A DNA stretch of 64,000 bases. It comes from an uncultured virus (IMG/VR IMGVR_UViG_3300025000_000001) (taxonomy: Duplodnaviria > Heunggongvirae > Uroviricota > Caudoviricetes). The stretch lies in IMG/VR virus record IMGVR_UViG_3300025000_000001. One strand, written 5' to 3'. Of the stretch, positions 6,229 through 54,939 are shown in pieces. The position numbers and the translations under genes were made by a program. The notes beneath the pieces were generated by a model that ran no database searches, was not told the DNA's origin, and worked only from the letters and a program-made list of their open reading frames with translations. The first letter of the stretch is position 1, and the number at the start of each line of letters is the position of its first letter.

Positions 6229-6231
6229 AAT

Positions 6232-6657
6232 ATGTTAAAATTTATACGGAAGTTATTTTTTCTTATTGCTGGTGTCGGTATAGGAGTTGGAATTGCTCTT
6301 GCTGCAATTCTTGCTATTCCCGTTTATGCAAGTACAGAGAATCCAGATAATTACTACTGGAACAGCGGTCAATTTGTTGGCTCATTGATTTTAGAAGAAG
6401 GTTCAGTTTACTGTTTTCTTGAAGGCGAAACTAATCTGAATTGCTATCATTACTCAAATGAACCTTATGTAATTTACAGCAATCAAGTAAGTGATTCTAA
6501 GTTTATTCGATTTGATGGCTGTAATAAAGACGGTTGGATTACTGTTTTAGGTAACGGTACTACTACAATGAAATTTGAACTACCTTCAAAAGTAGTTTCT
6601 TGTAGTAGTCAAAATAACGCAATATTTTACCCGATTATAATGACAGGAGGAGAATAA
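6232..6657 (+). CDS. Exported or membrane-anchored protein
   Basis: N-terminal basic plus hydrophobic segment ending VYA; C-terminus IFYPIIM. Confidence 0.75.
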   Translation: MLKFIRKLFFLIAGVGIGVGIALAAILAIPVYASTENPDNYYWNSGQFVGSLILEEGSVYCFLEGETNLNCYHYSNEPYVIYSNQVSDSKFIRFDGCNKDGWITVLGNGTTTMKFELPSKVVSCSSQNNAIFYPIIMTGGE

Positions 6658-6659
6658 TT

Positions 6660-6939
6660 ATGAAGAAATCAGAAATTGACCAAACTGGTAGAAACAATGC
6701 GAGAACACCTTGAGATTTTAGAGGCTGAAATTGTAAGGCAAGGTTTAGAGATTGAGGATTTGAAAAAGGGTCGAATTTCTCTTTGCGAACCAGGAGATTC
6801 TGAGGAATATCATTGGACTAACTTTAGCGCTAAACGATGCCCTATTTGCAAGCAATTGATTAGACCCGATAGAATTCATACCTGTTGGGCTTTCAAACCA
6901 TATGAGACTATTTGTAATGATGATAGGTGGTGGTGGTAA
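6660..6939 (+). CDS. Hypothetical protein, apparent +1 frameshift at ~6675
   Basis: SD plus ATG at 6660 (MKKSE) is one base out of frame with ORF 6676-6939. Confidence 0.55.
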
Positions 6940-25964: not shown

Positions 25965-26306
25965 ATGCCATTGACTCCTAACGCTCAATTAACTCAGACT
26001 CCGGGCTTACTAGATATAACTATGACTAAGGGGGATAATCTCGCTTTCAATATTGATTTTAATATTGATCTTACGGGCTATACCTTTGTCGCCAAAGTTG
26101 TTTTTTCAGATAAAACAACAGCGCCTTTTACCATTGTTGTTTCTAGTTACCCAAATGGAATTTTGGCCTTATCAATAGATGATAGTGTCAGTTCTATTTT
26201 TCCAGTTGGAGAAATGACTTGGTACTTTTCTTGGACTGGGCCAACTCCAACTTTTTTAGTTAGAAAGGTTTTGGCAGGAAAATTTACAGTTATAGAAGGA
26301 GGATAA
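25965..26306 (+). CDS. BppU-N-like adaptor protein
   Basis: KGDNL..IDLTGYT...GKFTV pattern; resembles 58645-59004. Confidence 0.6.
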   Translation: MPLTPNAQLTQTPGLLDITMTKGDNLAFNIDFNIDLTGYTFVAKVVFSDKTTAPFTIVVSSYPNGILALSIDDSVSSIFPVGEMTWYFSWTGPTPTFLVRKVLAGKFTVIEGG

Positions 26307-28577
26307 ATGACAGATATTGAAATTGTCATAAAAACTCCCAATGCTATAACAGTGGAGCCTTCATTTATAGATGGAGGAGAAACAATAGCTGCCACAGTAG
26401 AGGAAAGACCAATTCTTGTTGAACCTTCCTTTATCTTTGGCGGCGAAACGGTTGATGTGTTTGTTGAAGAAAGACCCGTCGAAGCCTCTGTTATTTTTAC
26501 CGAGGAAACCGTCTCTGTACAAGTAGACGGAAGACCGATTGAGGTTTCTGCCGGTCTTAGCGGTGGCGGGGATGCCCAAACCCTAGATGGTTATGATGGA
26601 TCGTACTATCTTGATTGGGACAATTTTACGGGCACTCCAAATAGTTTGTCGGGATATGGAATTACAGACGCCTATACAAAGACGGAACTTCAAACGAGTG
26701 GACAAGCAATTGTTGATTGGGGAAATATTTCCAATGAGCCTTCGTTTGGAACCGCTGCTTTTGAAGATGTTCCCATTTCGGGAAATGCTTCTGGTACAGA
26801 AGTTGTTGTGGGGAACGACACCAGATTAACGGATTCTAGGACTCCGTTGTCTCACGGTAGCACCCATACTTCCACCGGTGGAGATGCCGTTCCTGACGTT
26901 ATTGCCGCTGGAGCATCGGGATTAATGGGGGGTTCGGATAAAACCAAACTGAACGGAATTGAATCTGGGGCAGAAGCAAACAACATATCCGATGTTGACG
27001 CGACAGATTTAACCGATGGTGGAGATACAACCCTTCACATTCACGATGGAAGATATTATACGGAAACAGAACTTCAAACTTCTGGACAATCCAGTGTTCA
27101 CTGGGGTAACATTACAAACGAACCATCTTTTATAGATGGAACGGGGATTGCGGGAAGGGTAGGCGAATGGTCTGATACCGACAGTTTGCAATCCAGCACC
27201 CTGATCAAATCCGGGGCCGGGGTTTTGACTCTATCGTCGGCTACGAACGCCGGGCTGACCATCGCCGTGACTGCCGCCAAGACCTTGACCCTGGCGGCGG
27301 CGGATAACGCAACCCTGACCGTTCCGGGCGCGGGGGGCACGGCGGCGCTGATGAGCTATGCCAACGCCGGAAACTTCGGCGTAGGGGTAACGCCAACTGC
27401 TTTTTTGCATGTCTTGGGCAATACAACCTCTAACCCACTTCTCGAAATAAAAACGTCGCTCGCCACTACATCCAGGGTTTTTGTTGTGCGAAATTCCAGC
27501 GACGTAATAACACATCAAATGGATGCGGTTAGAGGGCAATTCGCGTTCGGTAATGTTCTGCCAAGCACCCTTCCATCTGGAGCGCCTGGTTTTCAGGTTT
27601 ACGGTAACAATTCTGGCGCAGTAAACAGAATACAAAATTTTTCAAACACAGCTACAACCACATCAAGCGTACAGCTTTATCATTCTAGGGGTACTTATGA
27701 CGCCCCGACACCACCAAACGCGAGCGGCTATTATCTTGGACAACTTACATTTGGTTCCTACCGATCTGCTGGCGTCGCAGTTGCAAGAGCAGCAATACAA
27801 TCACACTCTACCGAAAGTTGGACAGCAACTGTATCGGAGGGCGCTAATTTACTTTTCCAGGTCTGCCCATCTGGAACAGCGACTAACGTGACGCTAATGA
27901 CCTTGCAGGACTCTTACGTTGGTATCGGCGATCATATACCGCTGTATAAATTACACGTATTGGAGTCTGACGCAGCAACCAACGCAATCACAACGACTGT
28001 TACCCTCGACCACAACACCAGCGGCATCGTCGCGGCGTCTGGCCTCGGCAGTCGCATACTCGGACGACTGGAGGACGCCACGACTGCCGACCAGGAGGCG
28101 TTCAGCCTGGACTGGTACTGGACTGACTCGACCCACGCTGCGCAGCACGCCGCGGCAGTTATCCGAGTCAACAAAGCCGGGACGATGACGGAGGTATTTA
28201 GGGCGGGCAGCACAGAGGTTGTCGTCAACGAGACGGGCAGCGCGACCATTGACATGCGGGTAGAGACAGACAGTTACGACGCGCTGTTTGTGGATGCGTC
28301 AAATGACTCTGTCATGATTATGTCCAACGCGGCGGGCAAGGTTGGCTTTTTTGGCGGCGCGGCAGTCGTGCAGCAAACCGCCCTGACCACGCAGCTAACC
28401 ACCCTGACGGCAAGCGCGCCCGGAACACCCGATTATTCAATCCAAGACCTTGTGGCTGGCGGTTTTGGTTTTGTGGCGGCTGATGAGGGGCAAAGCATGC
28501 TGAGTGCATTCATTAATTTACAAACCAGGGTAGCGGAGCTGGAAACCAAACTACAGGCTTACACCCTGTTAGCATAA
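26307..28577 (+). CDS. Long mosaic fibre-like protein
   Basis: P.SLSGYGITDAYTK, GNDTRLTDSRTP.SH, DKTKLNGIE, H.HDGRYYTE fibre motifs; internal repeats. Confidence 0.8.
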   Translation: MTDIEIVIKTPNAITVEPSFIDGGETIAATVEERPILVEPSFIFGGETVDVFVEERPVEASVIFTEETVSVQVDGRPIEVSAGLSGGGDAQTLDGYDGSYYLDWDNFTGTPNSLSGYGITDAYTKTELQTSGQAIVDWGNISNEPSFGTAAFEDVPISGNASGTEVVVGNDTRLTDSRTPLSHGSTHTSTGGDAVPDVIAAGASGLMGGSDKTKLNGIESGAEANNISDVDATDLTDGGDTTLHIHDGRYYTETELQTSGQSSVHWGNITNEPSFIDGTGIAGRVGEWSDTDSLQSSTLIKSGAGVLTLSSATNAGLTIAVTAAKTLTLAAADNATLTVPGAGGTAALMSYANAGNFGVGVTPTAFLHVLGNTTSNPLLEIKTSLATTSRVFVVRNSSDVITHQMDAVRGQFAFGNVLPSTLPSGAPGFQVYGNNSGAVNRIQNFSNTATTTSSVQLYHSRGTYDAPTPPNASGYYLGQLTFGSYRSAGVAVARAAIQSHSTESWTATVSEGANLLFQVCPSGTATNVTLMTLQDSYVGIGDHIPLYKLHVLESDAATNAITTTVTLDHNTSGIVAASGLGSRILGRLEDATTADQEAFSLDWYWTDSTHAAQHAAAVIRVNKAGTMTEVFRAGSTEVVVNETGSATIDMRVETDSYDALFVDASNDSVMIMSNAAGKVGFFGGAAVVQQTALTTQLTTLTASAPGTPDYSIQDLVAGGFGFVAADEGQSMLSAFINLQTRVAELETKLQAYTLLA

Positions 28578-28589
28578 AGGAGCAAACCT

Positions 28590-28910
28590 ATGGCAATTGT
28601 ACTTACATCGACAGCAACAGACCGGATTGTGACGGGCACTTGGCGCGGGGCAAAGGCCAAACTTGACCCGGTCATTGAGGGCGCGGCGGCGTACTGGTAC
28701 AGCCTGGGCTACGGGCAGGTGATGGCGGGCGAGGTACTTACGCCGTTTGCCAGCCTGACCATCGCCCAAAAACTGAACGTGATGGACGAGTTTGTCAAGC
28801 AGCACGTCCTCAAGGCGGCACGCTTAAACCTCAACGCCAACGTGGACGCGGCGAAACTGGCCGCCGAAACGGAAGCCGCGGCAACCGCTGCGGGTTATGA
28901 TTTTAGATAA
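28590..28910 (+). CDS. Fibre-associated hypothetical protein
   Basis: SD AAGGAG; GC-rich like the 3' part of the fibre gene. Confidence 0.65.
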   Translation: MAIVLTSTATDRIVTGTWRGAKAKLDPVIEGAAAYWYSLGYGQVMAGEVLTPFASLTIAQKLNVMDEFVKQHVLKAARLNLNANVDAAKLAAETEAAATAAGYDFR

Positions 28911-28960
28911 CGCGGCGGTAGATAACCAAGAAGACGCTCGGATTCAAAATAAGGAGTTTT

Positions 28961-29660
28961 ATGAATGCTTTAGGTATTGATGTATCAAAATATAATGGGC
29001 CGGTAAACTGGGAAGTTGCCAAAGAAAATGGTGTAACTTACGCTGGAATGCGGGCTTCAATTAGTTGGGGATATCGCGATCCCTGGATTGGATATAACCT
29101 TTCGGAATGTAAAAGACTGGGTATTTTTATTATGCCTTATCACGTCTTGTATCCTGGAGAAAATGTACCCAGACAGGTTGATAATTTTTTGAATGCGTGT
29201 GCTGTTTCTTGGGAGTTTGAAATTCCTGTACTTGACTTGGAACTAACTCACGGACAGTCGAAAGCGACCCATTACTATCGCTGCGGTAGCTTGGCTAGAA
29301 CAGGTCGAAGCCAAAACCGGAAAGAAACCGATTATTTACAGTCGTAAGAGTTGGATCGATTCGTACACCGTAAACGACATGTGGAGAACCCGATATGATT
29401 GGTGGTTGGCTCATTATTTGATGGACAGGACGGTTGAACGTCCGGCTCCACCCGCTATTCCTTCAACAGTTGTTAGCTGGCTAATTCATCAAAACTGTGA
29501 CAAGAAACCGGCTTGGGAAGGATTTGCCGCTTCTAGCAATGACTTCATTAAAACGGTTGACATCAATCGATGGAACGGCGACAATTCTGCCGTAGCAGAT
29601 TATTTCGGTTCAACCGTTCCCCCTGCCCCAGTTTGCAAATGCTGTGGTAAGCCTCTATAA
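28961..29660 (+). pseudogene. GH25 muramidase (endolysin 2), frameshifted at ~29270 (or sequence error)
   Basis: GIDVSKY...VLDLE in the first frame; continues ITIAAVAWLEQVEAKTGKKPIIYS...WWLAHY...VDIN in the +1 frame. Confidence 0.8.
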
Positions 29661-29686
29661 CATAAAAACAATTTAAGGAGGTAAAA

Positions 29687-30055
29687 ATGCCAAAGTGGAA
29701 ATACATCTCCTTAAAAGAATATATTGACGCTAGGCTAGAAGCAATCATTAAATCAGAAAGTGTTGCCTTAGACGCAATGGATCGAAGGATGGATGCTGCC
29801 AACGAACTTAGAGAAGCTCTTCGTGACGTAAATAACAATAGCGTTAGATCAACGGAATGGTTGGCTTTTAAACAAAGAAACATTCAAGATTTAGAAAACA
29901 TCGTTTTAGATATTCGCTCTCTTATGTTGTCTAGGGCAGAACTTGCAGGAAAAGCGAGTCAAGCACAATTAACAATAGTGATGGGAATATCTTTGATTAG
30001 TTTATTAATATCAATAATTACGTTTGTTTTAAAAATAACAAATGTAGTTAAATAA
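29687..30055 (+). CDS. Coiled-coil protein with C-terminal TM helix (lysis cassette)
   Basis: Hydrophobic C-terminal helix; next to lysin. Confidence 0.65.
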   Translation: MPKWKYISLKEYIDARLEAIIKSESVALDAMDRRMDAANELREALRDVNNNSVRSTEWLAFKQRNIQDLENIVLDIRSLMLSRAELAGKASQAQLTIVMGISLISLLISIITFVLKITNVVK

Positions 30056-33991: not shown

Positions 33992-35626
33992 TTGAATAAG
34001 CACATTAACTTTGAGGTTGAAAGTGCAGACATCATTGAAGAAAATCCAAACTCCCAATTTGCTACTGCGAGAATTTTAGCGTTTAGTTCGTCTCTAAATA
34101 GGCATGATATGAGTTGCTCGGAAGAAGTGTTGAAAAATACTGCTTCAACAATTTATAATAAACCAGTTTTGTATGTTTATGATGCTAGGTTTGATGACCT
34201 AAGTTCTCATGCTGACAAACCTGAGAAATCTTCTATTGCCGGATTTGTTGAACCAAACAGCGCAGAATTTATCAGGGAAGAAAATGGCGGAAGACTGCAA
34301 TTGGTGGTCTTGACTAAAATTTGGAAAAGATATGCCCCTAAAGTTGTAGAATTGTTTCGTTTTTCTGGGGGAAGAAAGAAAGTCAGCGTTGAGATGGAAT
34401 TGATAGAGGCTAAAGAAAGACCTGATGGAATTCTGGAAATGCTAAATTTTGCCTATACTGGCGTCTGTATTTTGGGGGATTTGGTGACTGAAGCCTCAAT
34501 GGGAGCTCACATGCAAATGTTGTCATTCTCTGAGGCCGATAAAGAATATTTAGAAGCATATAAAGCCGAATTCTCATCTCGTTATGATGATATTGATTTT
34601 ACTATTCCTGAAGAAGTAAAGTCAAATACTAAAATGGGTTTGGACTTGCATAAGAAAAAAGGTACAGGTGCAACATCTGTAGCTTTAGCAAATGCACGTT
34701 TTATATCTGGAAAAGATAAAATCACACCAGATAAACTAAGACATACAGCAAAATACCTATCTAGGAAAAGCAAAGAAGATCATAATGATCAAGATTCTAA
34801 TAGTTATGTTTCTTGGATGCTTTATGGTGGTGATGCTGGTTATAGATGGGCTTCATCCTTAGTTGCTAAGATGGATGAATTGGATCAACAGAGGGTGAAT
34901 TATTTTGCAAAGGAGGAAAAAAACATGGATGAAAAAGAAAAGGAAGAATTGAAAAAGGAAGAGGAAATGTCTGCGGTGGCATCTGCGGTCACACCTATGG
35001 CCGCTGAAGAAACTCCTGAAACTCCCAAAGAAGAACCGAAGAAAGAATCTGAGGAAGAAGAAAAACCAAAGGAATTTTCTTTGGACGCTTATCTCGATGT
35101 GGCTGCTGCTTTAGCGTTTTTAGAAGCTGAAACCGAATCCAATGAAGAAATGGTCGGAATGGCTGTTTCAGAATTAAAGAAAGAAGAAGGTAAAGAATTT
35201 GCTAAGGTCGCTGGTGCTATGTTCGCTGTTGCGATGAAGTATGCTTCTAAGGCGAAGGAATTTGAATGTAAGATGTCTGAGTTTTCTGCTAAAATGGCTG
35301 AAAATGAAGAAAAGATGAATTCGTATATGGCTGAGAATGAAAACCTTAAGAAATTTAAGGCTGATGTTGAAGCTAGTCAATTCCAGTTTGAAGTTGAAAC
35401 TACTTTGAAAGAAGTTGAAAATGCTGTTGAAATGCCTAAAGAAGAAATGGCTGCTTTGAGAGAAAAAGCTGCTGAATTCTCGCTTCTGACTCTTGACGCG
35501 TATAAAAACATGGTTAGAGCAAAGGCATTTACTTTTGCTGCTAAAGGTAAGAGTTCTAATGAAGTTAGAATTGGTTTACCGTTTACTAATGTTGATAAAC
35601 CCACAAAGAAAAGTTTGTGGGAATAG
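33992..35626 (+). CDS. Prohead protease/scaffold protein
   Basis: NRH, KKVSVEMEL, YTGVCILG; acidic coiled-coil C-terminal half; precedes capsid genes. Confidence 0.8.
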   Translation: MNKHINFEVESADIIEENPNSQFATARILAFSSSLNRHDMSCSEEVLKNTASTIYNKPVLYVYDARFDDLSSHADKPEKSSIAGFVEPNSAEFIREENGGRLQLVVLTKIWKRYAPKVVELFRFSGGRKKVSVEMELIEAKERPDGILEMLNFAYTGVCILGDLVTEASMGAHMQMLSFSEADKEYLEAYKAEFSSRYDDIDFTIPEEVKSNTKMGLDLHKKKGTGATSVALANARFISGKDKITPDKLRHTAKYLSRKSKEDHNDQDSNSYVSWMLYGGDAGYRWASSLVAKMDELDQQRVNYFAKEEKNMDEKEKEELKKEEEMSAVASAVTPMAAEETPETPKEEPKKESEEEEKPKEFSLDAYLDVAAALAFLEAETESNEEMVGMAVSELKKEEGKEFAKVAGAMFAVAMKYASKAKEFECKMSEFSAKMAENEEKMNSYMAENENLKKFKADVEASQFQFEVETTLKEVENAVEMPKEEMAALREKAAEFSLLTLDAYKNMVRAKAFTFAAKGKSSNEVRIGLPFTNVDKPTKKSLWE

Positions 35627-35653: not shown

Positions 35654-35872
35654 ATGGTTTCTGTTACGAAAAAATACTTCTTTTGCTATTCGTTTCGGTT
35701 AAAAGAATTTCTAACTGAAAAAACTATTCGTTTTGAATTTACTGGAAATAATCAAACTAACAATAAACCTTATTGGGTTTATATTAGAAATGATTATTTA
35801 GCAGATGCCTTAAGCGAATGGTCTAAATTGAATGGCGTTAAGACTAAATATAATGAGGAAGAAGGAATATGA
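35654..35872 (+). CDS. DUF5659-like small protein
   Basis: FFCYSFRLKEFL...N..TNKPYWVY pattern. Confidence 0.65.
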   Translation: MVSVTKKYFFCYSFRLKEFLTEKTIRFEFTGNNQTNNKPYWVYIRNDYLADALSEWSKLNGVKTKYNEEEGI

Positions 35873-36783
35873 GGAAACTAACAACTGAAGAAGTTAGAAA
35901 CATGGTCTTAGAAATGGGCTACGATATGGTCGGAGAATATACTGGGAGAAGAAACCCTATTGAAATTATATGTAAGTGTGGAAACCACTATTTTCCACAG
36001 GCAGGAAATTTCATATACGGAAAGTCCCTTCGCTGTGATGAATGTGGCAGAAAAAATGTTTCGAAAAGATTTTTGCAAACATACGAAGAGGTTTTTGGAT
36101 ATGTAGAAGATAATGGGAACGGAGATGTTCTATTGTCGGAAAAATATTCTGGAAATGGAAAAATAGAAATTCTTTGCGGAGTATGCGGAAAGAATTATAA
36201 AATACTATTCTCGTCGTTCAAATTGGGTCACAGGTGTTCTCATTGCGGAATAGCGTCTAGGACAAGGAAAAGTAGACTTTCCGCCGAAGAAATATGGTCT
36301 GACCTAAGTAGGCGAGGTTTGATTTTTGTTAACTACCAAACCTACGATGACGTAGATTGGCCCAAAATGACTGTTTCTTGCTCAATTTGCTCGTATACAT
36401 GGGAAACGACTTGGTTGTTTATTCGAGGCAATAGTGCGTGCGGAATGTGCAATCGTTCCCGCGGTGAAAGAAAAATAGAAAATTTTTTAATTGAGAATAA
36501 TATATTTTTTCTTCCTCAACATAAATTTGATGATTGCAAGAACGTTCGAAGGTTGCTTTTTGATTTTTATTTACCGGAACATAATACGGGGATAGAGTTT
36601 AACGGAATGCAACACTATGAAGAAAATGAGTTTTTTGGAGGAACGAAAGGATTCCAAGAAACTATTTTTAGAGACAAAATAAAAGAAGAATATTGTCTTT
36701 CTCAAGGAATAAACCTGTTGGTTATTCCTTATTGGGAAAAAGACAATATTGAACAAATTTTAACAAACTATTTATTTTCTTAG
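35869..36783 (+). CDS. Free-standing putative homing endonuclease
   Basis: Multiple CxxC; SRGE, LLFDFYL, IEFNGMQHY, VIPYW. Confidence 0.85.
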   Translation: MRKLTTEEVRNMVLEMGYDMVGEYTGRRNPIEIICKCGNHYFPQAGNFIYGKSLRCDECGRKNVSKRFLQTYEEVFGYVEDNGNGDVLLSEKYSGNGKIEILCGVCGKNYKILFSSFKLGHRCSHCGIASRTRKSRLSAEEIWSDLSRRGLIFVNYQTYDDVDWPKMTVSCSICSYTWETTWLFIRGNSACGMCNRSRGERKIENFLIENNIFFLPQHKFDDCKNVRRLLFDFYLPEHNTGIEFNGMQHYEENEFFGGTKGFQETIFRDKIKEEYCLSQGINLLVIPYWEKDNIEQILTNYLFS

Positions 36784-42327: not shown

Positions 42328-43365
42328 ATGACAAAGAAATTTCTTGTCTCTGTAGCTAATGTTTTTGGCTACGATCAGGAGAACGGCGATTTGGTCTTTG
42401 TTGGTAAAACTCTATTGGATTCTTCGATTGAAACCGCTCTAAACGCGACTGATGTTCGTGGTGGGCGGGGCAATCAGCTTCAATATGTGTATTACAATGG
42501 GGCCGACATGACCATTGCGGTCAATGATGCTCAGTTCAACCTGGACTTCTTGGCTAAAAATGTTGGCTCTGCTGTTGCAACCAGCAATAACATCTGGACT
42601 GAGGAAACTGTTGTTTTGGACGCTGGTTCAGAGGGCGATGTTACTGGGACTCCGATTGCAACCCCATTTACTTCGGTTTATGGTTGGGTCGCTTTTGGTG
42701 ATGGAACCACTCAGAAAGTTACCTTCAGCGCCACAACTCACTTTGCCGTTTCCGGTCATGCCAGCGAAACCGTTTGTGTTCGTTATTATGCACTAGATGC
42801 GGCTTCCCGTAGTCTGACAATTCCTTCCAATATTATTCCGAGCATTGTTTACTTGGTCATGGAGGCTCAGTTGGCCTCCGCTGATGAAACTGCCAACGTT
42901 ATTGGTAAGGTTCAGATCATTGTCCCGAAGGCCACCATGACTGGGGCTTTTTCGATGAGCATGACCGCCGATGGTGTTGCCTCAACTCCGTTGAACGCTA
43001 GAGCTTTAGCCTACGAGGAAACCACAACTGGGGCTTGCACCAACGCTCCTTATCTTGCTAAGATTATCGAAATTTTGGATACCGCCAATTGGTATGATAA
43101 CGTGATCGCTCTGGCTATTTCCGGGGGAGACTTTGCTTTGACTCATCCCGACACCAGACTGTTGCAGGTTTGGGCGATTCCGTCTAGTGGAGCGGCTTTC
43201 CTTCCCCCAGTTGCAGACTTGACTTTCGCTTCGTCCACCGTTGGCGCTGCTACGGTTGACGCTGCGGGCCTTGTGACAACTGTTGCCGCTGGAACGACAA
43301 CGGTGAAGGCTTCAATTACTGCGGTGGCAACAATTGATGCCAACGTTATTGTAACCGTCAGTTAA
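42328..43365 (+). CDS. Major tail tube protein with C-terminal Ig domain
   Basis: KTLLDSSI, DVRGGRGN, DAQFNL; ATVDAAGLVT. Confidence 0.8.
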   Translation: MTKKFLVSVANVFGYDQENGDLVFVGKTLLDSSIETALNATDVRGGRGNQLQYVYYNGADMTIAVNDAQFNLDFLAKNVGSAVATSNNIWTEETVVLDAGSEGDVTGTPIATPFTSVYGWVAFGDGTTQKVTFSATTHFAVSGHASETVCVRYYALDAASRSLTIPSNIIPSIVYLVMEAQLASADETANVIGKVQIIVPKATMTGAFSMSMTADGVASTPLNARALAYEETTTGACTNAPYLAKIIEILDTANWYDNVIALAISGGDFALTHPDTRLLQVWAIPSSGAAFLPPVADLTFASSTVGAATVDAAGLVTTVAAGTTTVKASITAVATIDANVIVTVS

Positions 43366-43376
43366 GTTTTTTATTA

Positions 43377-43406
43377 TAGAGAGTACCTAGAAATAGGTAC
43401 TCTCTA
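43377..43406 (+). terminator. Hairpin after tail tube gene
   Basis: tagagagtaccta-gaaa-taggtactctcta. Confidence 0.7.
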
Positions 43407-43428
43407 CCTTTCAATAATTGGAGGTAAA

Positions 43429-44454
43429 ATGGCAAGAATATTTACCGATGGTGCTGAATTTGGAGATATGTTATTTTGGAATGGCGGAACGAGCGGAACA
43501 GCCGATGTTAGTTCTGTTGTCAAAAGAACCGGAAATTATTCATATACCTCCAACTCAAGCGGTGCAAACTCTGGCGAAATGGTTAGACTGTTAGATTCCG
43601 CTATCAGCGCCGGATACCTTCGTTTTGGCTTGAACATCGCTCCTGGTGGGGGCGAGAATACAATTTTGAAGTTTAGAAAAGGCTCAACGGTTATAGATTC
43701 CTTGAGATACGACGAATCTGTCAATCTATTGAAGGCATATCGGGGAGATGCTGCTAATCTTTTGGGAACCTCATCTATTCCTCTATTAGACAATACTTGG
43801 CATCTGATTGAAATTTATCTAAATATTCACGATACAACAGGTGTGTTTGATGTAAAAATCGATGGAACTGCCGCAATTACAGCAGAGAATGTTGACACTA
43901 AGCCGGGGGCAGACGCAGATTTTGATAACCTATCATTCTTAACTCCCGCTGGTTCTTTTGAATTTATGTATCTCGATGACCTTGCGTTAAACGATACGAC
44001 TGGAGGTTCCGACAATTCTTGGTGTAATGACGGCTATGTTATTGCGATTGACCCAGACGGAAACGGAGATGTTAGTCAACTCACAAACTCTAATGCCACA
44101 AGTGTTGATAATTATTCGTATGTAGATGAAACTCCTCCCGATGGGGATACGAGTTACGTTGAAGGAACAACTGCTGGTCATCAAGACTTATATACTATTG
44201 CTGATTATTCTGGAACGGGAAAGACAATTCGCAGAGTCTTTGTGGAATCTAGGGCAAAATCTACTGGCGCTGTTGGCGATCTTATGAAACTGATTTTAAA
44301 AACTGGCGGAACTGTTTATGCTTCTTCAGATATTTCTTTGGGAGCGGCTTACACCGCTGTAGTTGGCACAGACCACACAGTAAATCCAGCAACAGCAGTC
44401 GCTTGGGTTGAAGCCGATATTGATGCTCTGCAAATAGGTGAGGAAGTGGTATAA
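43429..44454 (+). CDS. Two-domain beta-sandwich (ConA/LamG-like) virion protein
   Basis: WHLIEI, YLDDLAL, P.GNGD, VDETPPDGDTSYV, NPAT..AW...DIDALQIG. Confidence 0.65.
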   Translation: MARIFTDGAEFGDMLFWNGGTSGTADVSSVVKRTGNYSYTSNSSGANSGEMVRLLDSAISAGYLRFGLNIAPGGGENTILKFRKGSTVIDSLRYDESVNLLKAYRGDAANLLGTSSIPLLDNTWHLIEIYLNIHDTTGVFDVKIDGTAAITAENVDTKPGADADFDNLSFLTPAGSFEFMYLDDLALNDTTGGSDNSWCNDGYVIAIDPDGNGDVSQLTNSNATSVDNYSYVDETPPDGDTSYVEGTTAGHQDLYTIADYSGTGKTIRRVFVESRAKSTGAVGDLMKLILKTGGTVYASSDISLGAAYTAVVGTDHTVNPATAVAWVEADIDALQIGEEVV

Positions 44455-45704
44455 TGGCTAGACGTTCTACTGCGACTAAGACAAATGTTGAATATTCGCA
44501 GTCTACGACTTATAGAAGATCAACGTCTACTAAAGCCGAAGTAGAATACACGAATACTCTCACCTATAGGAGATCGACTGCAACAAAATTGATGTTGGAA
44601 TATGAAATTCCACCAATTCCATATCCGAGAATAACATCTTCTAAATTAATAGTAGAATATTCATATCAACCATTTTCACCAATCAAACCCTATAAGAAAT
44701 TTTTGATTTCTGTCGCTGATGTTTACGCTTATGATTCTAGCGGAAATCTTGTCTTATCAGGGAAAACCATGATGGATACCGGAATTGAACTCTCTTTATC
44801 TGTTACCGATGTTTATGGTGATAGAGGCGCTCCAACAGAGTTTGTCTACTTCTCAGAACCAGATTTAACAATCACTATTGAAGATAGTCAATTTAATTTG
44901 GCTATGATATCTGCAACTACAGGAAAAGATATAGAAACTGGAAGTGACATTTATGAGGATGAGAGAGTTGTAATTGAGGCGGGCGGAATCGGTGAAGTTT
45001 CAAAAACACCCATTGCAAATGGTTATGCTTGGATAACTTTACCAAACGGAACCTTTGAAAGATCATTGTTTACTGGAAATCAATTTACTTCTACTGCAAC
45101 CGAAGGAAGTGTTGTTGACGTTTTATATCTAACAAACGTTTCAACGGCAGAAGTAATCACCATAGATGGTGAAATTGATCCTATGGAAGTTTATTTAGTT
45201 TTAGAGGCAACTTTAGCAATTGGAGATAGAACTTATAATGAATTTGGTAAAATTCAAGTAGAAATTCCAAAAGCAATTCTTTCTGGAAATTTTATTTTAA
45301 CTATGTCGCCAGATGGAGTTTCTAGTACAGACATAGAAGCTAGAGCCTTGTCTTATGATACATATGAATCCGGAGTTGGATACTATTCAATCTACGGAAC
45401 AATAAAAGAAACGATTCCGTTTAGAAATTGGTACGATGAAATTTCAGGAATATATATTGCCAACGGCGACTTTTCTCTTGCTTCAGGATCAACGAAACAA
45501 TTGGTTGTAAAAGCGATTCCAAATACTGGTGCGGCATTTAGTCCGCCAATTTCAGATATTGAATTTACCTCAGATAATCCACCTTCTGCTACGGTGAATT
45601 CGTCTGGTTTGGTAACTGGAATTTCTGTTGGGAATAGTGGCATAAGAGCAAGAGTTATAAACCGAAGAGAAATGACAGATGTGGTTGTAGCAACTATAAC
45701 ATAA
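44454..45704 (+). CDS. Tail tube paralogue with four N-terminal RxT/SxxKxxxEY repeats
   Basis: From residue 81 (KKFLISVADVYAYD) aligns end to end with 42328-43365. Confidence 0.85.
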   Translation: MARRSTATKTNVEYSQSTTYRRSTSTKAEVEYTNTLTYRRSTATKLMLEYEIPPIPYPRITSSKLIVEYSYQPFSPIKPYKKFLISVADVYAYDSSGNLVLSGKTMMDTGIELSLSVTDVYGDRGAPTEFVYFSEPDLTITIEDSQFNLAMISATTGKDIETGSDIYEDERVVIEAGGIGEVSKTPIANGYAWITLPNGTFERSLFTGNQFTSTATEGSVVDVLYLTNVSTAEVITIDGEIDPMEVYLVLEATLAIGDRTYNEFGKIQVEIPKAILSGNFILTMSPDGVSSTDIEARALSYDTYESGVGYYSIYGTIKETIPFRNWYDEISGIYIANGDFSLASGSTKQLVVKAIPNTGAAFSPPISDIEFTSDNPPSATVNSSGLVTGISVGNSGIRARVINRREMTDVVVATIT

Positions 45705-47701: not shown

Positions 47702-48157
47702 ATGAGCATATGGGCATTTGATATTAGTATGTCAAATACTGGAATATGTATTTTCGATAATGATGCAAAGTTAATTCATGTAACCAGCATAGATACAAAG
47801 AGCGAAAAAGAACATCCGAAAAGATTAAAAATTATCGCTGATAAACTATTAGAATTACGAAAAACATACACTCCAGACCTTGTTTTATTTGAACAAGGAT
47901 TTTATAGATATCCAGGCAGTACAGAAGCAATTTACAAAGTTTTTGGTGTGGTTCAATATTTGTTTGCAGATATAAAACAGCTTTTTTACCCCCCAATGAC
48001 AGTCAAGAAAGCCGTTTTAGGGCGTGGAAATGCCCCCAAAGAGGCTGTCAGAGACGTTATTACGAGTTTTTATTCAAATATGACCTTTAACAACCTAGAC
48101 GAGACTGACGCGGCTGCTGTGGGCTTGTGTCATTTTCACAAAGAAGGAATTTTATAA
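47702..48157 (+). CDS. ruvC: Holliday junction resolvase, RuvC-like
   Basis: AFDISMSNTG, VLFEQ, VKKAV.G.GNA.K, DETDA. Confidence 0.88.
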   Translation: MSIWAFDISMSNTGICIFDNDAKLIHVTSIDTKSEKEHPKRLKIIADKLLELRKTYTPDLVLFEQGFYRYPGSTEAIYKVFGVVQYLFADIKQLFYPPMTVKKAVLGRGNAPKEAVRDVITSFYSNMTFNNLDETDAAAVGLCHFHKEGIL

Positions 48158-49173
48158 TGAGCGTTGAAAAAATTGAAGAAGTAAGTGATGAACAATGGAA
48201 TTTAGTCAATCCTAAAAATAGAAAAATGGCTGAAGAATTCTTACGAGAATCGGTTCAACTCAGTCCACAAACATTGAAGCAATATTCATCTGCTATTAAA
48301 ATTTATTTTCTGTGGGTAAAAGATAATCTTGAAGATAAGAATTTCTACGATATTAAGTCAAGAGATTTTTTGATGTATCAAAATTTCTTAGTTCGTAGAG
48401 GTTTATCTTCTGCTGCCATTAGATTGAAAAGAAGTGTGATTTCTAGTTTCAACGGATATATCGAATTATATTATCAAGAAGAATATCCGATGTTTAGAAA
48501 TTACATCAACAAAAAGATTGCTCCCCCACCTCCTGCTTTAGTTAGAACTAAGGAACCACCCAATCTCGCTGAGATTGAAATGATTTGTGAAGAATTAGAA
48601 AAGCAAGAAAGATGGCAGTTGATCGCATATCTTAGATTTAGTTTTTCGACTGGTGCTAGAAGAAATGAAGTAAGACAACTTTTGAAAGAAGTTGTTCATT
48701 ACGAGCCGAAAGTTTCTATCGTAGAAGTCAAGTCAGAAAACGGAATAATCGAAAAGAAAGAATCTCGATCTTACATCACTCATATTATTCGTTGTAAAGG
48801 TAGAGGAATCGAAGGAAAGAAACGAACTTTGCAGTTTGATGAGAAAACCATGAAGGCGATCAAAAAGTGGTTAGAGATTAGGGGTGAAGATGATTGCCCT
48901 TATGTTTTTGTGATTAGAAGCATTGAAGGAAACTGGCATCAGGTAGCAGAATCTACTTTCAATATCTGGAGTGAAAAATTTATCACCCCAATTCTGGGAA
49001 GAAGATTTCACCCCCATGCTATTAGAGAAGCAAGAGCTACTAGTTTAGTAATTGAACAAGGTAAAGATATTAAGGTTGCTCAAAAACTTCTCGGACATGA
49101 AAGCAGTACAACTACTGAGATTTATGTTATCAATAAGGAAAAAGATGATTCGGATGAGGCATTTTTAGATTAG
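48157..49173 (+). CDS. Tyrosine recombinase
   Basis: STGARRNE, CKG, HPHAIR, LGHES..TT.IY. Confidence 0.92.
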   Translation: MSVEKIEEVSDEQWNLVNPKNRKMAEEFLRESVQLSPQTLKQYSSAIKIYFLWVKDNLEDKNFYDIKSRDFLMYQNFLVRRGLSSAAIRLKRSVISSFNGYIELYYQEEYPMFRNYINKKIAPPPPALVRTKEPPNLAEIEMICEELEKQERWQLIAYLRFSFSTGARRNEVRQLLKEVVHYEPKVSIVEVKSENGIIEKKESRSYITHIIRCKGRGIEGKKRTLQFDEKTMKAIKKWLEIRGEDDCPYVFVIRSIEGNWHQVAESTFNIWSEKFITPILGRRFHPHAIREARATSLVIEQGKDIKVAQKLLGHESSTTTEIYVINKEKDDSDEAFLD

Positions 49174-49198
49174 TGCCTCTAATTGAAAGGAGGTGCTA

Positions 49199-52100
49199 AT
49201 GGCTGGACAGAATTTTACGGTTTTAATTGAAGCCAGATTAAAAAGTCAGATCGAAGCGCAAATAAAGGCTTTAGCAGAAAAGCAACAGCAAATTCAACTT
49301 TTTGTTAAGTTAAAACTAGAAGACATTGGGGCAACTTTACCAAAAGACGTTGCTGATCAAATTGAAAAAATACGTCAAGAGGCGAAAAGCCTAAGTAGTT
49401 TACACGCTACAGAAATAGAAGACGCTGAGGGTAAGAGAAAGATACAGCAATATACTCTTGAGTATATTAGCAAAGAAAATGAAACAAGAAAGGCGATATT
49501 CAATCTTACTCAGAGAGAAAGCGTTGTAACCAAACAGAAAGAAGAGTTTTACAAACGCTCTGATAGATACAGCAAAGATTATCTTAAAACAATAAGAGAG
49601 TCTGAGAAACTAGAACAAGATCAACTAAGAACTCAAGAAAAATTAGATGCTCTATATGCTAGAAGAGCGGATCAAATGAAGAGTATGCAAATTCAGGCTC
49701 AGAAATTTGATGAAAGAGCGAAAACGTTATCTCAGACACCACAAGTTAGAGAAGCCCGTTCTATCGCAAAGCAGATGATCGACAGCGACGATCCTCAGAG
49801 AGTTGCTGAACTTAATGATAAATTACAAGTTTTAGACGCCGGAATTAGGCAATCCGGTAAAGCGACTTGGTCTTGGGCGGAACAAATGAAGGTTGCCATT
49901 AAAAGAACTATAGAGTGGGGAGCGGCCACAGCGGTTTTATATGGCGCTTATAGGCAACTCAGAGAAGGCATTCAGTATGTTATAGACTTGAATAAAGAAC
50001 TGACAAATATTCAAGTTCTACAAACAACCGGAGCCAAAACAAACGAACAGATTCAAGACTTAGCGAATTCCTATAATGATTTGGCGATTGAGATGGGTGT
50101 AAGCACTTTGGAAATTGCCAGGGGCTCTACAGAATGGCTCAGGAGCGGCAAGAGCATTTCTCAGACTAAAGAATTGCTTAAATCAACTTTGATGCTCTCA
50201 AAGTTAGGTGCAATTGAAGCCGCAGACGCTACAAAGTATTTAACAGCGATTATGAATGGCTTCAATATGGAAGCGGAAGAATCGGAATCTGTTGTAGATA
50301 AATTGGTTCAATTGGACAACAACTATGCTACTAGCGTTTCGGAAATAGCTCAAGCAATGCAGAGGTCATCTGCTTCTGCTCAAATGGCTGGAGTTGAATT
50401 TGATCAACTTGCAGCATATATAACTGTTGTTTCTTCCGAAACAAGAAGAAGTGCGAGTACGATTGGTGAAGCCTTTGATTTTAGAGGCTTTGCGGCATAA
50501 TAAATAAACCGCAAAGAAAATTTTCTTTTATGATTTATGCGACAATGTCGCATAATGCTTGGAAACCCTTTTGGCGGGGCGACAAGGACGAAGCGAGTGT
50601 GTTTTCTCATTATCTTCCCGAAAGTGAGATATTTTTATGAAGAGATGTTTGAATTGTAATAAAGAAATTCCGAATGCAGTTTCTTTTAAAAAATTTTGTT
50701 CTATAAAATGTAGAAATGAATATAGAACTGTTCAAGATCGAGGAAAATATAAATATTTTTGTGATTTCTGTGGTGAGTATTTTGAGGTATCTTATAAAAA
50801 GAAAGGTGAGCATGTATTTTGTTCTAAGGAATGTAATTTTGCATTTGTTTCAAGAGAAGGAAGAAAAGTAACAATTTGCGAATCTTGTGGGGAAGAATTT
50901 GTTCAACCAAGACATGAAAATCACAGGTTTTGTTCTACTGCTTGTGTCGGAATAGGAAAAAAGAATTTGGTGGGAGAAAAAAGCCCCAGTTATATGAAAA
51001 ACTATTCCGAAGATGATCGAACGTTTTTATGTAAAGTGTGCGGAGAAAAAATAAAAAGACCTTTTCGAAGAAACAGAATCCCAAAACATTGTTCTAAGAA
51101 GTGTGCGATGGCAGCCATGATCAATTCTCTCACTAAGCCCCACGTGGCAGTCTGCAATATGCTGGATGAATTAGGGTTTGAATATTTGATAGAGGAGAAA
51201 ATAAATGGATTTTTCGCAGACGTTTTGATTGGAAGTTTGGTAATTGAGGTTATGGGAACCTACTGGCATTGTGACGTTAGAAAATATAATCAAACAATAA
51301 ACGACAAGCAGCAGAGAAATGTAGAAAGAGATTGTCGAAAGAAACATTCTCTAAACGATTCTGGATACAAAATATTATATTTATGGGAAGATGATATAAT
51401 TAAAAATTCAGAAATGTGTTCTAAATTACTAGAATTCTTTGTGCTTAATAATGGAGACATAGATAACCACCATTCCATGAATTATCATTTTGAGGGTGGA
51501 ATATTGTTCTATAATGATGTTGTCTGGGTTCCGTATTTTGAATATGACACTTGCGCGTTGAGAGACTAAATAAGAAAACACCATATTTAGATGGTGATGA
51601 GATAGTCCGAACTGCGATATAAGCCAATAAAAGAAATCGCAGAAGAATACTCAGGTGTAAAGACACCTTAAAGAAGTAGTATTCTCACTCCAAACCGGAG
51701 TAGTAACATAATGTAAAACCATTTTTGCTCGTATGGAAAATATTAAATTAGGAAAAGTTTTTGAGGATGACGCTACCAATATCAATGACGTTGAAAAGGC
51801 ATTGTCGTTGGTTGGAATTCGTCTTAGGGAGGAAGAGGGCGGATTCCGATCTATGGCCGATGTTTTGGATGAACTGTCCTCCAAATGGGATCAGATTGGT
51901 GAATTGGAACAGCGGGCCGTTGCAACCGCCATTGGCGGTTTGCGCCAGAGAGAAGTTTTGCTGACTCTTTTGGGAGAGCAAGAAAAAGTACAAAAAGCCA
52001 TGATTCTTCAACAGGCCGCAGAGAACCTAGCACAGAAACGTTATGCTATTTATCTTGAAAGCGTTGAAGCTGCTCAAGAAAAATTCTTGGCAACAAAACA

Positions 52101-54939
52101 GAAATTATGGCAAAACTTTATCCCCAGCGATCTTGTAAGAGATGTAATTGATCTCGGAACCGGAATATTGACTCTGATTGATCAAATTGGCGGTTTGAGT
52201 TCAATTATTGTGGTTGCCACTGCTGCCCTAGTCTTATACAATTCTCAACACGTTTTAGCATTTGGAACAAACTTAACCTCTGCAATAGCATCTATTCCCA
52301 GATTGATCGCAGGAATAAACGCATATACCTTTGGTTTAAATGCTGCAACAATTGCAACAGCTAATCTTGCAATAGGAATAAGCGGGTTAGTTGCCGCATT
52401 TTTGGTTTATAGAAAGTTACAAAAAGATGCCGAAGACGGAATTAAAAATGTTGCCTCAGCGTGGGAAGAAGCAAACAGAAAGTTAATCGAAGTTGAGGCA
52501 AGCAACACAGAAGTTCTTGACAGATATCGCAAAGCGATGGATAATACAAATGCTGTATTAGACAAGCAGTGGTTTTATCTGAGGGCGCTGATTGACGAAG
52601 AAAAGTTACGGGAAGACCTAGCTAAAGTAACAATTGAAACGCTAGGTAAAACATCTAAAACATTTGAAGAATATTCTAGGGCATTGAAAGAAACTGCTCT
52701 TTATCTAGGATATTCGGTTGATGAAACAGGAAGGTTTTATACTCTCATTCCGACAGTTGATGGAATAGTCAAAGAATATTCGAATTCTCTCTGGGGACTT
52801 AGTGACGCAGAGTTTGAGGCCGGAAGAATATCTGGAATTCTTGGAGAAGAAGTGGAGTTTGTTGGTGGTGCTTTCAGAGAATTTTCGGATGTCTTAGACG
52901 GCATTCAAGATAAAATAACGGTCATAGATGATGCAATAACTTCCTTTGGAAAGGGAGAATTCGGTGTTGAAGATATTCAAAAGTTGGCTGAAGCCTATCC
53001 AGAATATTTAGAGGCTCTTGAAATTGAGGGAGATAGTCTTACTTTAAACACTGAAAAGTTAAAAGAATACAAGAAAGAGTTGATTGAAACCGCTATAGCG
53101 GCAATCAAGGCGGCAGGCCCACTTACCGAATCTGCTGCGAAACAGGTTGAAATTCTTGAATTCATGCTTAAGACTATGGATAAAATGCCATCTGAATCTG
53201 GTGGGTTTTTTCTAACCGGATTCGAAGAAGAAAGAGAACGACTTGATGAAACTTTAACTGGTTATCAGGCTCTTAGTGACGCAATCGGACAATTCGGAGA
53301 AACATCTCAAGAGGCATATGAAGCATTACAGAAATTCTTAGGTGAAGGCGCAGACATTCAAAACTTTCTAACCGAAGAAGGCGCTGTAAACATAGACGCC
53401 TTGAAGTCTCATACAGAAAGTTATTTTTCCTGGCTGAATGACGCAATCATAAACTCAACCGAGTTGTCGGAAGAAATGAAAGCGGCACTACTTGGTCTGT
53501 TGAATGAAACTGCTAATGCTATATCAAATATTCAGGGTAGATTAGTTGACGGAATTTATTTAAACCAATATCAATTCCAACAATTTGCAACTGATGTTTC
53601 TCAAGTTTTATTTGATGCTGCTAATAACGCGAAAATCGTTTTAGTTGATATTGCTGGTAATACTCTGAATTCTGCTGAAAACGTAAAAGTTGCCCTGATG
53701 AATAAGATGATCTCATATGATCAACTTATGGCTCAACTGAAAAATTCATCTTTTGGATATCTAACTCAAGTTGCAGAGTATGGTGCACAATTAACTGGTT
53801 TTCTAACCGGTGGGACTCCGTATAAACCTGTTGCACCAAATTACACAACTCTTGGAGGAGGTGGGGGCGGAAGCGGTGGAAGTCAAGCCGAATCGCCAGA
53901 AAAGAAGCGAATTCAAGCAGACATAGACGAACTTCTTCGAAAGAAAAAAGCATTACAAGATAATCTTAAGGCTTTCAAAAAGTATATTGATCTTCAAAAA
54001 GAATCTCTGAAACTTCTAAAAGAAGAAAAAGAGTTCAACGATTCCTTACAAAAGAAAAATAAAGAACTTGGTGATCTGAAAACAGAAATCATGATTCTTG
54101 GCCTAGACGATAGCGAAGAAGCTAAAGCCAAACGATTGCAACTTGAAGAAGAAGCGATGCTTTTGGAAGAGGAAATCAACAAAGATTCCGAAGATCGTAA
54201 ATATGAACTTCAAATTCAGGCTCTTGAAAAACTAGAAAGCGAATATCAAGAAGGAATTGAATATCAAATCGAACTGATTGATATGGAAATTCAAAGACTG
54301 AAAGATGAAGCCGAAGCATTGAATTCTGTTGGTGGAGGAGTTTCTTCGGTTACTTCGCAGTATCAATATCAAGGGAGTGTTGTTGCGCAAGTAGTTGATT
54401 CCATAATTGCAAAATTAAAAGAAAACAAAGACAGCGTTGCGGCAGTAGAATCAGAAATGAGAACTTTGATTACCTCTTGGGTGTCTGCCGGTTTGAGTGC
54501 AGATGAGGCGTATGCTAAAGCTGTTCGCTATTATGATTATCTCTCTTCTATGGGTGGTGGTGGCAATTGGCAAACAAACGCTCCAAGCGCAACCACAGGA
54601 ACGGGGGCGGTTGCTGCGGTTCCTCATCACAGCGGCGGTTTTGTTGGTGGATTGAAAAGCAATGAAGAATTTGCCAAACTTCTTGATGGCGAATTGGTTG
54701 TAACTCAATCCCAAATGGATAAGTTTATGAAATATACATTGCCAGGAATGGCTAAAACCAAATCGGTTCAAAGTTCTTCCGGAAGCGTAAAAATAGATAA
54801 ACTTTTAAACGTTGAGGGAAATTTAGATTCTTCAGTTATGCCAAACGTTGAAAAACTTTTGAACGCCGCTGTTGAAAAATTAAATAGCACCATGTTAAAA
54901 CGTGGATTTCTCAGACAAACAAACAGTTTTAGCACATGA
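49199..54939 (+). CDS. Tape measure protein; exons 49199-50475 and 51714-54939, 1500 aa spliced
   Basis: TP901-type core (WLRSG, VDKL...DNNYA); splicing restores TIGEAF|KTIFARM; C-terminal HHSGG. Confidence 0.9.
50476..51713 (+). mobile_element. Group I intron, 1238 nt, with endonuclease ORF in P6
   Basis: P1 AAGCCUU/GAGGCUU with U.G; P10 tttta/taaaa; R ttgagagacta; S gagatagtcc; P8 caccat/atggtg; terminal G51713. Confidence 0.92.
50637..51569 (+). CDS. Intron-encoded homing endonuclease (Cys repeats plus Vsr/DUF559-like nuclease)
   Basis: Repeated CxxC...FCSxxC; FADV, IEVMGTYWH, GYKILYLWE. Confidence 0.87.
   Translation: MKRCLNCNKEIPNAVSFKKFCSIKCRNEYRTVQDRGKYKYFCDFCGEYFEVSYKKKGEHVFCSKECNFAFVSREGRKVTICESCGEEFVQPRHENHRFCSTACVGIGKKNLVGEKSPSYMKNYSEDDRTFLCKVCGEKIKRPFRRNRIPKHCSKKCAMAAMINSLTKPHVAVCNMLDELGFEYLIEEKINGFFADVLIGSLVIEVMGTYWHCDVRKYNQTINDKQQRNVERDCRKKHSLNDSGYKILYLWEDDIIKNSEMCSKLLEFFVLNNGDIDNHHSMNYHFEGGILFYNDVVWVPYFEYDTCALRD

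Follow-up and report, generated by a model that had tools for sequence, protein, structure and literature searches.

Small fibre proteins held on a protein rope have been solved in phages, and they are the closest described systems to the gene pair that we analyse here. The pair lies in a stretch of 64,000 nucleotides (nt) from an uncultured virus of the Caudoviricetes (IMG/VR record IMGVR_UViG_3300025000_000001), and consists of a lectin-like gene followed by a second copy of the tail tube gene, which opens with four strand repeats. In the Felixounavirus myophage Bas63, the cryo-electron microscopy (cryo-EM) report describes a collar protein with an N-terminal rope, on which whisker dimers sit 'like beads on a string' (PMC12609058). 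The rope passes through the whisker grooves and completes their incomplete sandwiches, and its authors call it apparently homologous to the separate rope protein of GP4. The beads of Bas63 are small whisker dimers formed via N-terminal helices, two dimers per rope, and the carrier is an immunoglobulin-like (Ig-like) collar on the neck (PMC12609058). In the podophage A1002, again by cryo-EM, eleven fibre dimers stand in tandem on the fibre-dock 'rope' of gp39, the nozzle-rope protein; each dimer forms an augmented beta-sheet with the rope, and two fibre proteins share one rope (PMC13730344). The same source gives GP4 a separately encoded rope and describes VP1 as similar; in these podophages the beads, of 140-171 aa, bind in dimeric form, and the ropes are parts of nozzle or collar proteins. 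In the solved systems the rope remains in the virion (PMC12609058, PMC13730344). In the following, the window is the whole 64,000-nt stretch and all the coordinates refer to it at full length.

Strand donation is also the principle of chaperone-usher pili, where every subunit gives one strand to its successor; the result is a head-to-tail polymer, for which a periplasmic chaperone and an usher are needed. Furthermore, tail tubes can be decorated by covalent extra domains, as in the frameshift-extended tube protein of SPP1 and the Ig-like domains on lambda-type tube proteins. We consider it fairly probable, on computational grounds, that the pair in the window encodes a rope-and-socket tether, in which the strands of the tube paralogue each hold one subunit of the lectin-like protein.

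Layout of the gene pair and its products

The pair is located directly behind the major tail tube gene. The features of this region, with the 341-aa lectin-like protein called the socket (or 'bead') protein and the strand-bearing segment called the rope, are the following:

42328-43365, plus strand: gene of the major tail tube protein (345 aa), which ends in an Ig-like domain of the Big_2 type (sequence, phmmer against the PDB, PHROG)
43377-43406, plus strand: hairpin with a perfect 13-bp stem, without a T-run after it (folding of 43360-43435)
43429-44040, plus strand: N-terminal ConA-like/LamG-like jelly-roll domain of the socket protein, residues 1-204 of 341, as modelled (AlphaFold2, VIA, Foldseek)
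44041-44454, plus strand: C-terminal beta domain of the socket protein, residues 205-341, with the predicted strand-binding site (complex prediction)
44454-44693, plus strand: rope region, the N-terminal extension of the tube paralogue, residues 1-80 (alignments A6 and A2)
44460-44495, plus strand: strand repeat 1, residues 3-14 (sequence; contacts socket copy 2 in the prediction, residue 12 with 270)
44514-44549, plus strand: strand repeat 2, residues 21-32 (sequence; predicted antiparallel to socket residues 268-276)
44568-44603, plus strand: strand repeat 3, residues 39-50 (sequence; outside the modelled rope piece, residues 1-38)
44625-44660, plus strand: strand repeat 4, residues 58-69, which diverges most among the four (sequence; outside the modelled rope piece)
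44694-45704, plus strand: tube module of the paralogue, residues 81-416 (BLASTP, PHROG, Pfam)
45474-45650, plus strand: Big_2 Ig-like domain of the paralogue, residues 341-399 (Pfam)

The product of 43429-44454 has 341 aa and ends in ...AWVEADIDALQIGEEVV, and that of 44454-45704 has 416 aa. The TAA of the first gene (44452-44454) and the ATG of the second at 44454 have one A in common (TAATG). A frameshift fusion of the two genes was considered and rejected: the second gene lies in the -1 frame with respect to the first, a TGA at 44439-44441 closes this frame, and no slippery site is present. Since the -1 frame opens only at 44442, 12 nt 5' of the ATG, and a slippery site is lacking, we read the overlap as translational coupling. 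Shine-Dalgarno-like sequences precede both genes. The neighbourhood fits a long-tailed phage by PHROG matches, with capsid-side genes upstream and the tape measure, Dit-like and minor tail proteins downstream. An identical copy of the pair was found on an independent IMG/VR contig, and the nearest record (G001, 31 kb) has neither the 341-aa nor the 416-aa gene.

Regarding the socket protein, the AlphaFold2 (AF2) model is all-beta, with two domains and no N-terminal helix (predicted local distance difference test score, pLDDT, 93.8; predicted template modelling score, pTM, 0.90). In this model residues 1-204 are a jelly roll of the concanavalin A (ConA) type. VIA aligned them with the glucuronan lyase 2zzj (Z 19.7, root-mean-square deviation 2.5 A, 188 residues aligned) and with Cip1 3zyp (Z 18.9), 278 chains having a Z of at least 8; the Foldseek matches of the whole model were lyases, CBM66 and lectin-type domains, and the structural match in the Atlas was PF14099 Polysacc_lyase over residues 1-202. 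Clostridial neurotoxin receptor-binding domains are also among the structural matches, because of the common jelly-roll fold only. This domain is probably glycan-binding, its ligands may be sugars of the host surface, and the protein may have an adhesin role; a shared ConA-like fold shows no function by itself. These whole-model searches (Foldseek against the PDB, VIA) are dominated by the N-terminal domain and therefore say nothing on residues 205-341. The 341-aa protein had no match in Pfam, and none of the Pfam models searched matched the lectin family, the C-terminal domain or the rope; profiles of the whole family (A1), of the C-terminal domain (A5) and of the rope (A2) found no significant chain among the PDB sequences.

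The family itself is very large. A profile search gave 27,858 representative clusters with E<=1e-3, of which 5,650 have E<=1e-30, nearly all the members having 320-345 aa. They begin directly with the jelly-roll domain, no second acceptor strand being found at the N-terminus, and all of the 39 aligned members reach their C-terminus at ...DALQxGxEV.

The N-terminus of the 416-aa protein contains four 12-aa repeats spaced by 18, 18 and 19 aa. The strand motif is basic-basic-x-T, six residues and E-Y, with a period of 17-19 aa across loci. Tandem Repeats Finder gave 0 rows on the DNA; in the absence of repetition at the DNA level the repeats are therefore kept at the protein level rather than being a recent duplication, and selection is thus indicated. 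Thus far the original prediction, made from the letters of the DNA, was right in what it described: a lectin-like beta-sandwich protein, a stop and a start overlapping as TAATG, and four repeats at a spacing of 18-19 aa ahead of a copy of the tube gene.

Strand arrays in related loci and the predicted complex

The repeats of the window are not an isolated case. A scan for the pattern [TS]x6[EQ][YFWH], with at least two copies at a spacing of 15-22 aa, found it in 39 of the 2,491 six-frame open reading frames (ORFs) of the window and the lectin-centred loci, nearly all of them directly 3' of lectin genes. Among the ORFs of the tube-centred loci it was found in 5 of 3,363, one of which is the 416-aa gene's own copy in L042. 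The repeats of the window align column for column with the rope proteins of related loci (A2). An alignment in which lectins and short ropes were mixed (A3) scattered the ropes over the lectin columns and was discarded.

We then consider the lectin arrays of IMG/VR, which amount to 20 distinct ones, including that of the window, once identical duplicates are merged. In 17 of these 20 arrays, the ORF whose start lies at -4 to +25 nt from the end of the last lectin gene has two to seven strands of the same type at its N-terminus, and this is also the case in 16 of 19 arrays when the window's own contig is excluded. The exceptions are L030, L031 and L015-17, the last having a 661-aa protein that begins with one strand at most. 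The rope appears in two forms:

i) As a free protein of 53-134 aa, several or often with a GPPxQV-like tail. The Atlas model of a free rope alone has a pLDDT of 0.42 and is predicted to be disordered, which is what would be expected for a segment that folds on binding.

ii) At the N-terminus of unrelated proteins of 144, 178, 215, 240, 261 and 977 aa. As it is found both free and fused to unrelated proteins, the rope behaves as a portable N-terminal adaptor.

Furthermore, the type of strand tracks the type of lectin. Strands of the 'TQ[VI]L' type were found in all four arrays with a variant lectin subtype, characterised by a two-residue 'AA' insertion at 200-209 and a changed segment at 272-278, and in none of the 13 other rope-bearing arrays. 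In L008, which has both lectin subtypes, a single rope carries both strand subtypes (4+3), and L012 has two lectins and two strand subtypes (3+2). The segments that separate the lectin subtypes fall inside the predicted interface described below. We take this tracking as suggestive rather than as statistical proof, because the independent lineages are few.

In two cases the strand and the domain belong to the same protein. Gp11 of the Streptomyces phage Galactica (1,103 aa, annotated as a minor tail protein) has a strand of the same type around 10 residues after the domain, and four strands are found at the same distance in P0201, a metagenomic protein of 416 aa that is a singleton, its source being one contig of 3.1 kb. 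A search with residues 310-416 of P0201 for further fused forms returned only P0201 itself. As far as the aligned sequences go, the norm of the family is to end at DALQxGxEV and to have the strand in the next gene, and fusion is the exception. The original prediction had suggested that related phage domains continue into a final strand and had proposed to look for homologues with both parts fused. These two proteins bear the suggestion out, although 39 of 39 aligned members end before the strand.

The complex prediction comprised two copies of the 341-aa protein (alignment A1) and rope residues 1-38 (alignment A2), that is, repeats 1 and 2. It reached an ipSAE interface score of 0.90 (0.91, 0.89 and 0.90 in the runs), with at least 97% of the contacts common between runs and a partner pLDDT of at least 82, whereas the three controls gave 0.53, 0.01 and 0.00. 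Each of the two modelled repeats takes one socket monomer, at the same site of the C-terminal domain in both copies. The interface residues in both copies are 200-209, 232-247, 255-262, 264-281, 284-290, 304-311 and 326-341. The contact register between socket and rope (276/23, 274/26, 272/28, 270/30 and 268/31) is that of an antiparallel strand; repeat 2 also touches 204-208, 243-245, 255 and 336, and alternate rope residues reach 207 and 336. Thus the central proposal of the original prediction, a strand supplied in trans to each lectin-like subunit, gains support in silico from four independent lines: the gene order (17/20), the subtype co-occurrence, the cis fusions and the predicted complex (0.90 against 0.53 for the best control). 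The pairing, its conservation across relatives and its modularity are the parts of the proposal that computation supports.

Several observations weigh against this proposal. The control at 0.53 was an unrelated 38-residue peptide with 176 confident contacts, so the socket site, or the predictor, appears to tolerate generic peptides to some degree. In the calibration 116 of 157 solved complexes, and 2 of 215 mismatched pairs, came up to the mark, counts that hold only roughly for a job with its own alignments and several copies. The original prediction would have docked each of the four repeats, and the model, in which repeats 1 and 2 were docked at 0.90, covers only those two. The interface residues were not significantly more conserved than the rest of the C-terminal domain (Mann-Whitney p = 0.13). 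The 341-aa protein modelled alone is confident throughout, with no block below a pLDDT of 83, and no part of its fold is visibly missing. When the cis fusion P0201 was folded with AF2 (A4), its four strands stayed undocked, as low-confidence helices with a pLDDT of 26-60; the strand region had single-sequence coverage only in that fold, which gives no support either way. The subtype co-occurrence comes from few independent lineages, the ropes of L024 and L027 being identical. Finally, the N-terminal extension of 80 residues would have to exit the tube lattice.

The tolerance of the site for other peptides also bears on a different reading, in which the strands are a transient chaperone for assembly or folding that keeps the socket open or soluble, the socket protein is handed on to its final site, for example the baseplate or a fibre, and the tube paralogue is a convenient carrier or has a separate function. 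The unrelated peptide at 0.53 makes such an exchange conceivable, free ropes can be very short (53-83 aa) and are disordered in the prediction, and the donor strands of pili do work by chaperoning followed by exchange. However, ropes are also fused to large structural-looking proteins and to the tube paralogue, the cis fusions join strand and domain permanently, and at the N-terminus of the 341-aa family no second acceptor strand was found. Moreover, the rope persists in the virions of the solved analogues (PMC12609058, PMC13730344). We regard the transient chaperone as unlikely.

Some further features of the related loci touch the strands and ropes. The free rope ORFs of L005, L008, L011, L019, L024, L026 and L027 have a common C-terminal tail, G-P-P-x-Q-V/T-M/I, which may be a second docking peptide fixing the rope to the virion. 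An 'AYL-x-G' motif, which may represent another strand type, is repeated many times in the 977-aa protein of L010 (7827-10760), the one that begins with two rope strands; it is also present at the N-terminus of the L010 rope protein (6018-6740) and in the 15-residue C-terminal tail of the lectin homologue P0042. In Tetraselmis viridis virus S20 (L121, 3200-4957), a 585-aa protein after a lectin homologue has four tandem strands R-x-S-Q-V-V-I-Q-A-L, which are internal and with a period of around 14 aa, instead of N-terminal and of the E-Y type. In the uncultured 595-kb phage LR756511.1 (L122) three places match the lectin family, and an 85-aa ORF without the canonical strand motif lies between lectin-family genes of 340 and 363 aa.

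The tube paralogue and its surroundings

The identity of the carrier is clear from the comparison of the two tube copies. The 345-aa protein matches tail tube proteins of the PDB over residues 6-233 (phmmer, 8k98_A with E 2.5e-9 and 9jgh_A with E 2.7e-9), and both copies match phrog_2729 (E 4.3e-21 for the 345-aa protein and 9.1e-21 for the 416-aa paralogue). A precomputed label on this siphophage-type tube family, PF27173, was not among the Pfam models searched here. A BLASTP comparison aligned the 345-aa protein with the 416-aa protein from residue 81 of the latter (40% identity over 328 residues, E 6e-82). Both copies have a C-terminal Big_2 domain, which in the paralogue has an E of 7.7e-7, above the Pfam cut-off. 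In an alignment of ten sequences including the paralogue (A6), 17 columns are invariant and the paralogue keeps all of them. By sequence, therefore, the paralogue belongs to the siphophage-type tubes, given its similarity to the major copy and the invariant residues it keeps, and the second full copy of the tube gene that the original prediction placed at 44454-45704 is really there.

The extension of 78-80 residues appears to be an addition, because the eight other homologues in A6 all begin at the KKFLxS motif; it is missing from all the other family members found, and homologues span just 75-81% of the 416 residues of the paralogue. Within 79 tube-homologue loci, the window's own contig is the only one with two tube copies, with a lectin gene next to the tube gene or with a rope borne by a tube protein; the tube-fused rope was found in none of the 78 other related tube loci. 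In two related contigs the lectin array lies around 25 kb from the tube gene. The extension could also be an arm with which a specialised ring makes tube-tube, tube-terminator or tube-baseplate contacts; it would then not bind the 341-aa protein, the lectin gene being adjacent by chance. Tube proteins commonly use N-terminal arms for contacts between rings, the arrangement is absent from the 78 other tube loci, and the AF2 fold of the cis fusion showed no docking. Nevertheless, in 16 of 19 other arrays, where no tube gene is attached, lectin genes are followed by this strand motif too, and this, together with the subtype co-occurrence and a complex prediction of 0.90 against 0.53 for the best control, makes the arm a highly improbable explanation of the extension.

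The 345-aa protein is 58-66% identical to P0122-P0124. In a FastTree tree, rooted at the midpoint and lacking support values, the paralogue sits on a long branch apart from the clade formed by the major copy and its closest relatives. The paralogue may be an old duplicate, a transfer or a fast-evolving copy.

The hairpin between the major tube gene and the pair is as strong as the original prediction had it. The 76-nt stretch 43360-43435 has a minimum free energy of -24.1 kcal/mol (z -4.1), and none of 200 shuffles was equally stable; the terminator scan did not call the hairpin at 43377-43406. However, it is not specific to the pair. The stretch just 3' of the tube gene folds at -15 kcal/mol or lower in 36 of 50 distinct related downstream stretches (L043-L120), which include the paralogue's own, folding at -6.1. 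A strong stem-loop after the tube gene is thus a habit of the whole lineage and not something of the lectin and rope-tube pair, and therefore the cassette was inserted behind a pre-existing element. The hairpin fits a lower expression of the pair than of the major tube protein, but it was not made for the pair.

The same facts may be taken to mean that the lectin and rope-tube pair is a recent cassette, poorly expressed or not at all, which contributes nothing to the virion. The pair sits behind a strong hairpin, it is absent from the 78 other tube loci and its paralogue is a long branch outside the major-copy clade in the unsupported, midpoint-rooted tree. On the other hand, both ORFs are intact, with Shine-Dalgarno-like sites and the TAATG coupling, the 17 invariant columns are kept, the repeats persist at the protein level without repetition in the DNA, and an independent IMG/VR contig bears an identical copy. 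We find a silent cassette very unlikely.

The tether that we favour would work as follows. The 341-aa protein would have an outward ConA-like domain, probably glycan-binding, and a C-terminal beta domain with a site for one strand. The first 80 residues of the 416-aa paralogue would be a rope of four strands, each inserting antiparallel to residues 268-276 of one 341-aa subunit, so that one tube-type subunit could carry up to four lectin-like subunits; we infer that all four strands are occupied and that the extension reaches the outside of the tube. Being behind the hairpin and coupled through TAATG, the pair would probably be less abundant than the major tube protein, and the amounts of its two products would be roughly matched. 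The paralogue, which may deserve the label of minor tube subunit, would then enter the tail, either sparsely along the tube or as one dedicated ring, the latter being at least as likely as scattered incorporation if the Bas63 collar is taken as a guide. Weak sugar-binding modules on the tail would help to hold the host surface.

A broader view is that the 341-aa family and the strand arrays form a very widespread, unannotated plug-and-socket system of tailed phages. Its lectin-type sockets would be made for a short strand from the neighbouring gene, its portable adaptors would be joined to any virion protein that is to bear lectins, and cognate subtypes would permit two orthogonal pairs on a single rope; here the adaptor would be grafted on a tube paralogue, so that a hexamer could carry up to 24 lectins. 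We put this forward tentatively, with slightly more doubt than confidence. If it is true, a function and a partner would be gained by a family that is among the larger ones of phage 'hypothetical proteins', as well as by the adjacent tiny repeat ORFs that gene callers and annotators ignore. The rope-and-bead principle, known by cryo-EM from a few podophages and one myophage, would reach other families and a tail-tube carrier. A lectin gene followed by basic-basic-x-T-x6-E-Y repeats would be a sequence rule for finding tethers in metagenomes, and the apparent cognate strand and socket subtypes would be natural orthogonal peptide-domain pairs. Moving an adaptor of 20-80 residues would be a way of swapping host-surface-binding modules between virion positions.

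Apart from the pair, the window has some other features. The tape measure gene is apparently split, as 49193-50500 and 51733-54939 match positions 393-773 and 787-1008 of phrog_4211, with an HNH/homing endonuclease ORF between the two parts (50637-51569); around this gene no intron family was found in Rfam at the gathering threshold. A second HNH/homing endonuclease (35869-36783, phrog_559 with E 1.3e-63) lies between a 544-aa protein (33992-35626), which matches PHROGs of unknown function, and the head genes. The tail module also contains, at 47702-49173, a gene for a RuvC-like resolvase (phrog_159 with E 1.3e-31) and one that resembles tyrosine integrases (phrog_1 with E 2.6e-36); they stand between the genes that follow the tube paralogue and the tape measure. 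Finally, the guanine plus cytosine content is 0.47-0.49 at 26001-30000, versus around 0.36-0.39 elsewhere, and this region holds a 756-aa ORF (26307-28577).

Comparison with known systems

The original prediction took the donor strands of pili as its model. The likeness is that a beta domain would be completed in trans by a strand from the N-terminal extension of another polypeptide. However, here several tandem strands sit on one carrier, and the socket does not itself bear a donor extension. The neighbours of the locus are phage head, tail, tape-measure and nuclease genes, and neither a chaperone nor an usher gene was found among them. Pilus-type strand exchange was thus rejected as the home family, given that the strands are in tandem on a different protein and that no chaperone or usher is nearby, and the rope and whisker fibres of phages take its place as the closer analogue. 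As regards SPP1 and lambda, tube subunits or appendages would likewise expose carbohydrate-binding-type domains along the tail, whereas the decoration proposed here is a separate protein, held non-covalently by strand insertion and in several units on each carrier; the carrier has a paralogous gene of its own.

Rope-and-bead systems have a tandem docking rope, either free or fused, and a docking segment that augments the beta-sheet of the bead. The first is found here in the four repeats and in the homologous free and fused ropes of the relatives; the second comes from the complex prediction only, and was not reproduced when the cis fusion was folded with AF2. As in Bas63 (PMC12609058), a putative ring-type virion protein has an N-terminal rope, and in the lectin-associated family ropes are also both free and fused. 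In contrast, the carrier here is a tail-tube paralogue of a siphophage-type tail and not an Ig-like collar on a myophage neck, and the bead has 341 aa, with an added ConA-like domain and no N-terminal helix, one monomer being predicted per 18-aa repeat. Furthermore, neither the bead nor the rope has sequence similarity to any solved chain searched. The two bead proteins on one rope of A1002 resemble the loci L008 and L012, with their two lectins and two strand subtypes; unlike in GP4, VP1 and A1002 (PMC13730344), the beads here are twice as long and have a lectin-type domain, the anchor is a tube paralogue, and the repeats have a clear sequence motif (basic-basic-x-T-x6-E-Y).

The literature on phage-tail donor strands, tail-fibre strand complementation and the Pam4 cryo-EM gave no description of the 341-aa family, and none was found of a non-covalent, multivalent decoration of the tail tube in siphophage-type tails. 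The mechanism that the original prediction proposed already exists in phages; what differs here is the protein families, the bead, which is twice as long and has a lectin-type domain, an apparent stoichiometry of one monomer per repeat, and a tube protein as the carrier.

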